Below are positions 11,747 through 59,919 of a stretch of DNA of 64,000 nucleotides, piece by piece. Within the stretch, counting starts at the first letter, position 1, and every line of letters starts with the position of its first letter. The notes under the pieces are model-generated. The model saw nothing but the letters and a program-made list of their open reading frames with translations. It did no database searches and was not told where the DNA came from. This stretch comes from Eledone cirrhosa (taxonomy: Eukaryota), in the NCBI GenBank assembly GCA_964016885.1, contig OZ024743.1, forward strand, positions 234,670,001-234,734,000, written 5' to 3'. The position numbers and the translations under genes are program-made.

Positions 11747-12700
11747 CTTAATCGCCGTCCGAAACTGGATCAAGAGCAGCCGTGTAGTCACTCTCCTCTG
11801 GATGAGGAGGAGAAAGATGACTTACAGGGTACGGCATCTGCCCTGGAAGATTTGGTCTTGTGGGAGGAACGGCAACGAGATGCCATTTCTACTTATGGAG
11901 AAGGAATCCAAAACTGGTCGTTACAACAGCAGACCAGTGAATCTTTACTTGAGGGTGATATCGAACGGCTGAGCAGTGAACATGGGAGTAGCTCACACTT
12001 GACAGAGCCAGAAAGGTGGGCTAGCCAACATAGCACTCCATCTCATAAACCTCTCAACAGGTGGACAACTAGTCAGTTACATGATGTGGCTTCCAGCTTG
12101 GACCGAGATCTCGAAAAATGGGCGAAAATCAATCAATCCATCTACACAGGTATAGAAAAATGGAAGGGCCTGAACACGGATGTGTCTAGTTTAGATAGGA
12201 ATCTTCAGAAATGGATGTGTAAGCGTCCAACTGCTGTATTGAACAAGGAACGAATTCATCATAAATGGCCAGTACCCTATCATGACATCTCTGTTAGTTT
12301 GGATAGAGACCTTGAAAAATGGGAGATCCAACAGCGAGAGAATGCTGCTAGCTTGGAGAGGGATTTAGAAAAATGGGTTGGACAGTGTCAGCAGAGTGCT
12401 TTAAATAGGGAAACAGACTTAGAAAAGTGGGTGTCCCTTCACCGTAAAAGGACATCACACTTAGAAAAGGAAATAGATGAATGGGTGGACAAACGACGTA
12501 ACAGCATACATCTGTTGGAACAAGAAGTGAATGACAGCAATTGCAGACGACACAGTAGTGTCTCTCTTTTGGGAAGAGAACTGAAAAAATTACCACACTC
12601 CCCGCACAAAGGACACAGAGAATCAACAGGTGCTGTAGCTACTTTACCACGAAGAAATTTGAAAAGGGTCATGCAGAAAAGACATTTTAAAGAAACATCA
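11747..12700 (+). CDS. Coding exon of an unknown protein with 18-aa Trp-anchored repeats (S-L-D/E-R-D-L-E-K-W)
   Basis: Frame open 11747-12703 in AT-rich DNA; repeat conserved in protein with synonymous variation; candidate phase-0 donor tca|gtatga at 12700/12701 just before TGA (12704-12706); no early in-frame ATG. Confidence 0.7.
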
Positions 12701-12976
12701 GTATGATGTTAAAAGACTGTTTAGTTTTATTTTAAATTTCTTTTTCTTGTATTTACTGGCTTTTGGGGTTTTTTTTTTTTTTTTTATTATGGTGTTGGAA
12801 AAAAAATAATGTGATACATCATACAGAAAAATGGAAAAGGGTGGAGCAAAATATTAATATCAAGTTGGATGCTTGTTTTGTTTTGTTTTGTTTTTTTCAA
12901 CCATTTTATTAACCGACTAAATCTTTTTTGCTATTGATACATTTACTATTGTTAAGGTTACACTGTTGTTATCAAT

Positions 12977-13228
12977 ATATATATATATATATACGCGCGC
13001 GCACGCACACACGCACGCACACACACACACACACACACACACACACACACACACACACACACACACACACACACACACACACACACACACACACACACAC
13101 ACACACACACACACACACACACACACACACACACACACACACACACACACACACACACACACACACACACACACACACACACACACACACACACACACAC
13201 ACACACACACACACACACACACACACAC
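12977..13228. repeat. Compound (TA)n-(CG)n-(CA)n microsatellite, ~210 bp of CA
   Basis: Read directly. Confidence 0.98.
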
Positions 13229-13244
13229 ATATAAAGGCAATGAA

Positions 13245-13465
13245 AGTGGCAGAAATGGTAGAACGCGTCATTTAAATAAATGCTTTGCAGTATTTGATTT
13301 TCATTGTTGTAAGTTCAAATCTTAGCGGGTTGATATTGCCATTCATCCTTCTGGAGTCACTACAATATGTACAATACATGAACTGCAGTTGATTTGCTTA
13401 AATGACTTTACACTTTCACTGTGTGTGTGTTGTGGCCTTGTGTCAGTGTTAGGAATGATTGTTAT
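13245..13465 (+). mobile_element. Diverged SINE family B copy
   Basis: tggcagaaatggtaga..aagttcaaatc..ttgccattcatcctt..ggccttgtg. Confidence 0.6.
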
Positions 13466-57783: not shown

Positions 57784-58044
57784 TAATCTATGTTAATATA
57801 AATTGATTATGAAATTTTGATTCATTTTATTGCCCCGCATTTTACGAATGGCTACTGTAGTTTCGGAACACGCTCCTCCACTGCTGATTTCATCACCCAG
57901 GTAATGGAAACTGTCAACTATTTTTATAGAACTGACTGGGCATTTGAAGGAGCTAGTATCCTTTGGGCACTTGTTACTTATTGTACCTGTGCATCAGCTG
58001 CCTGTAAACCTACATTGTTTGGTAGCCTGCCTGTGATCCCACTG

Positions 58045-58627
58045 TAGCTTTTATGTACCCTTAGCTTGCATTTGAGATCAGAATGGAATTTCTACCTACT
58101 CGTTTCCTGCACACTGAGGAAGGCCATTTCTTAAAGGGAATCTGGGCCATTTTTTCTTTTCTACATACTAGGACTTCAGTCTTTGACAAGTTTACTCCAA
58201 ATAAGACCTTTTGATTCTAGGCCATGCTTCCAGGTTTGGAATTTCTTCTCTAATTTTGCCATAGATTCAGCTATGAGGGTTAGATCATCTGCATACAGGA
58301 GTTTCTATGGGCAGCCAGTCTTAAACTCTTCTAAAGAGAGCATCTGTGGTACTTTTAACTGGCACAAATCCAAGCTGCATTTCATCAAGGTTAATTCAAT
58401 CCCTAATCAGTTGTGTGATAACTCTTTCATGACTTGGTCAACCAAGTTAATGTGTCTATAGTTTTCTTTGGCTAGAGCATCTCCTTTGCCCTTGTGGCAG
58501 TTGACGAAGATACTGCTATGCCAGTCATTGGGTATGACTCCATTTTGTATTACTTGGTTTACAATACGGGCGACTGTGGTGTGTCCCACCATCCCAGATG
58601 CTTTCAGCATTTCAGCAACTATCCCCA
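58045..58627 (-). mobile_element. Internally deleted RTE RT fragment
   Basis: MLKASG.VGHT..RIVNQVI..G.IP.DW.SSI.VNC.KGKGDAL matches the 44939 ORF. Confidence 0.85.
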
Positions 58628-59225
58628 GTCTATTTATGCATTACTCTTTCTGTCTATGTATCCCTATCTATCTATCAACGTTGTGGTAACTGGTTTTGCT
58701 AGAAATGACAGCGAAATAAAACACTAACTTCTTCAACACACACACACACACACACACATTGATTTGTACCTATCTATGTATTACTCTTTCTGACTCTATA
58801 TATTCCTATCAATCTACCCATCTCCATGTACAGAAAGCATTCTTCAAAAGAGAATCAACTGGATTTGTCTAGTATCTATCTATATATATATATCCCTAAG
58901 CAAGCGTTTGTCGTGGAATCACTATTATTAGACTAACATGTATTTCTTGAATAATCTGGTAGTGTAGTTGTGACAAGGCGTCATCCATTTCGAGTCTATA
59001 TTTAGATTTAGTGTGTGACAGTTCTATTATCTAGTTTTGTAAAGAGTGTGGAATTTCAAAAATATAGTCTAGGTCTTATATATTTTTCCGGTTTATTTTG
59101 ATCGAAGTCAAATCGTTATTTTCCCATTGTTATCATTTTTTGTTAATTACATACGAAACTAGTATGACAGTTTACGGTGTTGCTGTTGTGGATTATTTCC
59201 CTTGCTGAGATGACGGACAGCGTAA

Positions 59226-59809
59226 GCCAATCAGCAGTGAGCGTCTGCGTCATATGATTGTGTCTGTGCTGCTAACTCAGACAAACATCTCTGTCTGCGC
59301 CATCTCTCATTTATATTTTTAACGAAATCTGTTCCTAATCATTATCGATTATCATACGATACAGGACACGTTGTCTGACTATAAAAGTACTGATTTTCTT
59401 TCGGGCACCGTCATCTTCGTGATACGATGGTTAAACGGTGCTGTTACGGTACATGTAACATTCATAATAGATTTCTCGAGAGGCTGTCGGGCAGTGTGCA
59501 GTTTATACCTTTTCCGAGGCCAATCAGTAGTGAGCTCCTGCGTCATCTGATTGTGTCTGTGCTGCTAACTCAGACAAACATCTCTGCCTACGCCATCTCT
59601 CATTTATATTTTAATGAAATCTATTCTTAATCATTATCGTTTATCATAAGATACAAGACACGTTGTCTGACTATAAAAGTACTGATTTTCTTTTGGGCAC
59701 CGTCATCTTTGTGACACGATGGTTAAACGGTGCTGTTACGGTACATGTAACACTGACAATAGATTTCCCGAGAGGTTGGCGGGCGGCGTGCAGTTTATAC
59801 CTTTTCCGA
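59226..59809 (+). repeat. ~292-bp tandem duplication of promoter plus THAP 5' end
   Basis: Units start at gccaatcag (59226 and 59519); ATGs at 59427 and 59719. Confidence 0.92.
59427..59518 (+). pseudogene. Truncated duplicate of the THAP exon 5' end
   Basis: MVKRCCYGTCN..NRF.ERL.G.VQFIPFP, then runs into the second unit's promoter sequence. Confidence 0.75.
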
Positions 59810-59919
59810 AACCCAAACAAAACCTGGAAAAGTGTCTGCGATGGATTCTGTGTTGTGGTAGACCCTACTATCAGTTTAACGTCAATCGTGTCAGCAGAGC
59901 AACATATATTTGTACTAAG
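59719..59919 (+). CDS. Second THAP zinc-finger first coding exon, split before the His ligand
   Basis: MVKRCCYGTC..FIPFPKP..RW..CGR..TYICTK; donor aag|gtataa, 201 nt, phase 0; expected HF continuation not found in the window. Confidence 0.8.

Follow-up and report, generated by a model that had tools for sequence, protein, structure and literature searches.

At UGT1A, tandem variable first exons with promoters of their own are spliced in cis to shared exons. Further systems with exchangeable protein ends are described in the parts of the cited sources covered here. The vertebrate protocadherin alpha and gamma clusters have tandem variable first exons, likewise with their own promoters and cis-spliced to constant exons (PMC7811963). 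From a single locus each, Drosophila mod(mdg4) and lola make 20-30 isoforms in which one BTB domain is combined with exchangeable FLYWCH or C2H2 DNA-binding domains; this BTB domain is N-terminal and of the arthropod-only TTK type, with the motif FxLRWN, and the variable C-terminus is added by trans-splicing (PMC11426971). Alternative promoters give Drosophila BEAF-32A and BEAF-32B differing N-terminal DNA-binding heads of the transposase type (BED) on a common self-association domain (PMC13025758). In vertebrates, the new isoform b of KCTD1 arose when a DUF3504 exon of Crypton origin was inserted upstream of this BTB gene (PMC3212892). Transposase DNA-binding domains have also been spliced onto host regulatory domains, as in the KRABINER-type host-transposase fusions (bioRxiv 10.1101/2020.05.07.082677). 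Oyster BTB gene clusters are of another kind (PMC12111275). Octopus THAP and CENPB proteins, mostly with BTB/POZ, have been read as transcription factors originating from "BTB/POZ transposable elements" (PMC10027918). Here we analyze a window of 64,000 nucleotides (nt) from Eledone cirrhosa (G000:C4:234670001-234734000; positions below are relative to this window, and those beyond 1-64000 lie in the flanking DNA of the same contig). The window is very probably the middle of a large octopod gene with about 28 alternative first coding exons (heads), each likely with a CpG-island promoter of its own, that are joined to one BTB-containing body. Most heads have the sequence of transposon-type DNA-binding domains, and the single gene thus likely makes a whole family of regulators. 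The heads are arranged in four nested tiers, A to D, entering the body at the shared exons S1, S2, C1 and C2, respectively, and the coding blocks of the window belong to tier C.

Like mod(mdg4) and lola, the octopod locus combines one locus and one BTB domain with swappable DNA-binding domains. The polarity is the mirror image, however, as the octopod BTB domain is internal and lies behind the variable head, and the heads fall into seven or more domain families unrelated to one another. The BTB domain is also of a non-TTK type: the motif FxLRWN is not present in the sequence preceding the BTB core, and the closest matches in PDB are NS1-BP, ZBTB18, SLX4 and BCL6. Opposite polarity and a different BTB type make convergence the likely explanation of the resemblance. 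With the protocadherins and UGT1A the locus shares variable exons in tandem on one strand, upstream of shared exons, but the variable exons of the protocadherins are described as close paralogues of one domain with one entry point and CTCF-site promoters, whereas here the heads are unrelated, the entry points are four, the product is a candidate transcription factor and a search for promoter motifs found none. BEAF-32 is described as having a BESS domain and two heads, both from one family, in contrast to the approximately 28 heads, four tiers and BTB domain found here. The described KCTD1b event is a single capture without an array, and the KRABINER-type fusions, mostly with KRAB, represent one capture per gene, unlike the many captures on one acceptor gene in the octopods. 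With its unrelated heads, four entry points and internal non-TTK BTB domain, the array belongs to none of these systems.

From the letters of the window alone, the original prediction had singled out four unrelated forward-strand coding blocks, namely a Trp-repeat block (11747-12700), two THAP blocks (36855-37214 and 59719-59919) and a DUF3504 block (51104-52198), and had proposed that they are serial first exons joined to one constant region outside the window. Sequence inspection confirmed that all four are open frames closed by phase-0 GT donors (TCA|gtatga, GAC|gtaagg, GAG|gttagt and AAG|gtataa in the order 11747, 36855, 51104 and 59719), with a stop codon 1, 12, 10 and 1 codons past the donor. 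Three begin with ATG, as had been noted, while the Trp-repeat block opens after a TAA. The CpG enrichment ahead of each block was also found: computed over -700 to +100 around each start, the observed/expected (o/e) CpG ratio amounts to 1.21, 0.89, 1.15 and 1.16 in the same order, the median for the window being 0.39, although 0.89 is attained by 10% of 801-nt windows and the comparison is post hoc, the blocks having been picked partly for CpG. Pfam recognized THAP at 36855 (E 4.7e-13, 50.2 bits) and DUF3504 at 51104 (PF12012, E 9.3e-09, 36 bits with a cut-off of 29.7). In agreement with the claim that no coding exons lie between the blocks, tblastn with our protein set found none, its sole weak match (26769-26888) being deemed chance. 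One coding exon had been overlooked, upstream of all four blocks: the 50-nt shared linker exon S2 at 5742-5791 on the forward strand.

When longer proteins related to the DUF3504 block were sought among 1887 candidates, a single one was retrieved, isoform X2 (931 amino acids, aa) of Octopus sinensis LOC115209932. It is 87% identical across the whole block and continues into a BTB domain, the junction (..GIFE|HFVGG..) coinciding with the donor of the block. The X2 isoforms of O. sinensis and O. bimaculoides, of which this exon is the head, are 85-87% identical to it, and both continue ..IFE|HFVGG. When the 565 constant residues were used as query, 33 proteins were found among 8000 candidates scored, and the top ten, from O. 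sinensis, O. bimaculoides and Argonauta, matched at 83-100% identity behind differing heads; DUF3504, THAP, FLYWCH and CENP-B/Tc5 heads were all retrieved by the constant region alone. The isoform names of O. bimaculoides LOC106877732, which have the BTB-containing C-terminus in common, reach X36, i.e. at least 36 isoforms, of which 24 were viewed (15 of 32 members in one cluster). O. vulgaris models fall into the same clusters as the isoforms of the two loci, and 90% of the constant region is matched at 51% identity by a protein from cuttlefish.

The constant region proposed by the original prediction was thus located outside the window, with its BTB domain, in four exons with canonical splice sites. 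C1, placed by isoform homology, lies 24 kb beyond the window at 88190-88285 (G000:C4:234758190-234758285) and is followed by C2 (111861), C3 (112486) and C4 (113738-114808). These exons are 91-97% identical to LOC106877732 and LOC115209932, and by this homology, together with the corresponding heads in matching tiers, the window sits within the orthologue of the two loci. C1 starts with His, as the next exon of the second THAP block had been expected to do. Isoforms sharing a C-terminus in related genomes were likewise found, and they join the orthologues of the 36855 and 51104 blocks to C1 at the predicted donors; these head-to-body junctions are those of gene models from other octopods. The single entry point that had been envisaged gave way to four nested ones. 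S1, where tier A enters, was found at C581:41789-41828, on an unplaced contig described below. S2 ties tiers A and B to C1 through a phase-1 acceptor (ttctttcag) and a phase-0 donor (gtaagt), and it is 88% identical to the segment preceding HFVGG in the isoforms of these tiers.

Extending the analysis on both sides of the window yielded further cassettes, and the array grew from the four to six first suggested to about 28 heads. The 34 proteins examined carry 22 distinct heads and two very short ones; 20 of the 22 could be mapped in the Eledone cirrhosa genome (one by its second exon only), either around the window on G000:C4 or on C581, and a CpG-filtered scan of open reading frames gave nine more. 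The 28 intact heads comprise 15 THAP domains (four of them halves), four CENP-B/Tc5 helix-turn-helix domains, three DUF3504 and two Brinker domains, and four singletons: FLYWCH, Psq, a C2H2-like and a C17orf113-like finger, the last two below the Pfam cut-off. This genome shows directly which heads and shared exons are present, how they are ordered and oriented, and which splice phases they have. All 20 isoform-mapped heads join the nearest shared exon downstream. The donor phase is 0, 1, 0 and 0 for tiers A to D and agrees with the acceptor of the tier in 26 out of 26 tabulated heads (18 donors fixed by an isoform and eight chosen by eye, with the two-exon head of X11 and the head at 106557 left out). 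Twenty-four of these 26 begin at an ATG at the tabulated position, and the remaining two have an ATG nearby. The CpG o/e ratio is 0.66-1.82 at 19 homology-mapped first exons picked regardless of CpG (at least 0.80 in 18 of them), compared to 0.24-0.56 at all five shared exons tested, and these CpG patches suggest a separate promoter for each head. Head matches were on the forward strand in 36 of 36 bins and on the minus strand in none (0/36). In mod(mdg4) and lola, some exons lie on the opposite strand.

Most of tiers A and B, together with S1, is carried by C581, an unplaced 87.7-kb contig with simple-repeat ends, which probably fills a gap (200 N) that lies 9.1-9.3 kb ahead of the window. 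No head match at 50% identity or more was found in a further 170 kb upstream. Two promoter-like clusters had been suspected in the window. The one near 63800 stood up, as the CpG-rich region at 63500-64000 precedes a THAP head at 64343-64702, just beyond the window (the X16 orthologue); the one near 100 probably did not, since it adjoins a head ending 125 nt before the window.

Regarding the four blocks as cassettes, isoforms support the one at 36855 and the one at 51104, sister exons that at 59719, and the Trp-repeat block is considered separately below. The 36855 exon holds a complete THAP zinc finger, with C2CH ligands and an AVPTIF-like box, and is the orthologue of the head of O. bimaculoides X13, with 67 out of 90 residues identical (74%); X13 runs on as ..SQTD|HFVGG. 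The 59719 exon carries only the 5' half of such a finger, with the three Cys (C..C..C-x-K), and the His and the tail are in C1, which would supply the fourth zinc ligand from beyond the window. It is 47-64% identical to the sister half-THAP exons at 71853, 73370 and 75272, and these are 96-100% identical to O. bimaculoides X29, X30 and X32, annotated as ..CSK|HFVGG, a junction that completes the C2CH finger. On their own the four half exons scored 21.3 bits, 19.1 bits and twice no hit, the 59719 exon being without a match, against a Pfam cut-off of 23.9 bits, as compared to 25.8-27.6 bits for three spliced isoforms. Judging from accession order, the slot of X31 lies between 635 and 632 aa, and the 59719 exon plus the constant part would give 633 aa. 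In a tree, the four half-THAPs cluster with a THAP that is not split (106557) and has a C1-like tail (support 99/99, and 94/98 in a repeat on the first 72 residues only). Because of this clustering, an old THAP head of tier D is the likely source of C1, which would represent its 3' half; the 5' half would have multiplied while the intron gathered duplicates and new captures. A partial tandem duplicate of the 59719 head was found at 59300-59631 on the forward strand, with a unit of about 290 nt covering the upstream region and the first 35 codons. Its frame ends without a matching donor, and its ATG would open a frame upstream of the head that is closed ahead of the real start. This duplicate appears to be recent and shows an array seemingly still growing.

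In the DUF3504 head, derived from a Crypton recombinase, the H-x-x-R box, the only part of the catalytic tetrad compared, reads Q-C-L-R, whereas the His is kept in the two sister DUF3504 heads. An active DNA transposon was considered and rejected: the frames end after the DNA-binding part, and genome matches are confined to the locus (at least two, and at least six for the 59719 head); terminal repeats were not searched.

The arrangement suggests a simple mode of operation. As first exons, the heads have a donor and no acceptor, and therefore a transcript from any promoter would skip the later heads and splice to the nearest shared exon downstream, as known rules of splicing imply and as the joins of all 20 mapped heads fit. 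For the same reason no special pairing machinery would be needed for joining the heads, and both their mutual exclusivity and the four tiers would follow from splicing to the nearest shared exon. The choice of promoter would decide which DNA is targeted, and the BTB body shared by the isoforms likely dimerizes, as expected from its family (PMC11426971), so that co-expressed isoforms could pair differing heads. The array may have originated as introns repeatedly captured the 5' ends of transposases and the captured heads were then duplicated locally in tandem. A more far-reaching and quite tentative idea is a protocadherin-like promoter-array code, in which each cell would pick some of the about 28 promoters and BTB pairing would yield hundreds of two-headed regulators (406 pairs from 28 heads), for cell identity or transposon surveillance, the locus acting as a trap for transposon DNA-binding domains.

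Several observations weigh against this reading of the locus. All junctions are predicted gene models, none being at the RNA level from Eledone cirrhosa (three sequencing runs, in which coverage was even over introns and the C1 acceptor was crossed unspliced, speak neither for nor against splicing), and the O. vulgaris and Argonauta models are not independent, their names having been transferred from the RefSeq ones. Neither the X5 nor the X18 head could be located in the DNA examined, a genome search with the THAP first exon of X4/X7 found none (only the Psq exon was mapped), and the junction of the 59719 exon itself is not among the O. bimaculoides isoforms viewed. The position of C581 derives from the exon order of the same joins, although the order within C581 and within G000:C4 is independent. 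The first half-THAP tree was flagged for a long branch, the Trp-repeat block has neither an initial ATG nor an isoform, and DNA binding by the heads and dimerization of the BTB domain are what we infer from sequence. Moreover, no shared promoter motif stood out across the heads among all 7-mers and 8-mers (best raw p ~1e-4); ACTACTG and AAAATGGC are mildly enriched near heads, not significantly given the number of words tested. Finally, one UniRef model strings several heads into one 1402-aa protein. Such a chain shows that models can err, and since every junction here is predicted, the heads might be separate small genes or decayed transposon ends, with the isoforms being model artefacts or rare read-through; the broken CENP-B copy seen on C581 would fit this. 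We regard it as very improbable, as stops follow conserved donors within 1-12 codons, the half-THAPs are incomplete without C1, cross-species identity is 74-100% up to the donor, and phases agree by tier. It is somewhat less improbable, though still unlikely, that a few upstream promoters with non-coding leaders serve the whole array and that heads are picked by cis- or trans-splicing in the manner of lola and mod(mdg4), where trans-splicing is described (PMC11426971). Exons of 5' untranslated regions would be invisible in our comparison, which covered proteins only, and isoform X4/X7 has a THAP head exon followed by a second one with Psq, and the head of X11 also has two exons. However, each head has a CpG-rich patch and the shared exons have none, nearly all tabulated heads start at their own ATG, and the heads are collinear on one strand and without exception join the nearest shared exon.

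For the Trp-repeat block (11747-12700, forward strand, 318 codons) the balance is different. We give an even chance to its belonging, as an exon, to an independent nested gene or a non-BTB transcript, and about the same to its being an array head that starts at a non-AUG codon or has an upstream exon not yet seen. Its sole in-frame ATG is at codon 157, and short-read contigs agree with the assembly over 10700-12755 without a single difference, by which an assembly error behind the missing start was ruled out. The lack of an earlier ATG, the weak phase-0 donor and the absence of an isoform among those viewed speak for a nested gene, and so does isoform length: ranked by length, the consecutive O. 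bimaculoides accessions leave no free slot for the 728-aa or ~880-aa isoform it would produce. Nor does it belong to a DNA-binding family; no Pfam family scored above the cut-off and the Atlas gave no usable match. As to whether the repeat could be an amplified helix of the Tc5/CENP-B domain, the best domain scored 1.4 bits, matched by 4 of 300 shuffles. On the other side, the block lies between S2 and C1, has the phase 0 of the tier, and follows a CpG-rich and likely promoter region at 8500-11800 (o/e 0.67-1.76 per 500 nt, and 1.21 around 11747). Among 125 of 266 candidates scored it had one genome match and no second one, and its one relative, 90% identical, keeps the end point with an identical KETSV-stop. 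A CTG in strong context lies at ~11765 within the block, and a private exon further downstream was not detected. The sole stretch considered as such an exon, at 26769-26888, resembles a single Trp repeat, is preceded by a pyrimidine-rich tract and has a stop at its end, but is probably a chance match (E 0.06-0.35, missed by the repeat hidden Markov model). Immediately upstream, at 11579-11746, an ATG-started frame of 55 codons with non-coding-looking composition is in frame with the block, one TAA standing between them.

The isoforms are already present in RefSeq as "uncharacterized protein", and the common-locus layout is without a published description that we could find. The literature searched, with supplements and most subscription journals outside its coverage, neither describes the layout nor mentions LOC106877732 or LOC115209932. 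The covered part of PMC10027918 treats THAP/CENP-B-BTB proteins as separate genes, and its main text never uses the word "isoform" (supplements outside coverage). If one acceptor gene gathers DNA-binding domains of many transposon superfamilies as first exons, a large transcription factor family could arise without gene duplication. Counts of octopus THAP and CENP-B "genes" would then shift, as many may be isoforms of few loci, and the split THAP finger and the nested tiers would be a record of how such arrays grow. It also raises the question whether cephalopod cells diversify regulators by promoter choice, as vertebrate neurons do with protocadherins.

Related loci occur elsewhere in the genome. 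A second locus, 51 Mb away (G000:C4:285.92-286.08 Mb), is a tandem cluster of about six related BTB genes. In one of these, a THAP domain is split over the first two exons, a CG-1-like domain is present and a CENP-B head is situated internally, just ahead of the BTB exons. Two Logan proteins related to this locus have 819 out of 827 C-terminal residues in common, behind a THAP and another head, respectively, which supports the reading of the array. Just downstream of the array, the BTB of a sister gene (133524-171636) is preceded by exons of the Brinker-like, FLYWCH and CENP-B-like kinds. An isolated copy of part of C3, 92% identical, was found at 126662-126856, downstream of the array gene.

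Other elements in the window include an intact frame of 1037 codons at 44936-48049 on the forward strand, from a long interspersed nuclear element (LINE) with endonuclease and reverse transcriptase character that we take to be RTE-like, and partial copies of it at 27950-28609 and 39166-40467. These LINE copies are young insertions within introns of the array. A fragment of 174 codons on the minus strand (54318-54842) is presumably the C-terminal part of a CR1/L2-type reverse transcriptase. Outside the window, CpG content is near-constant in long stretches from -200000 to -172000 and from -55000 to -33000, which are probably satellite arrays.

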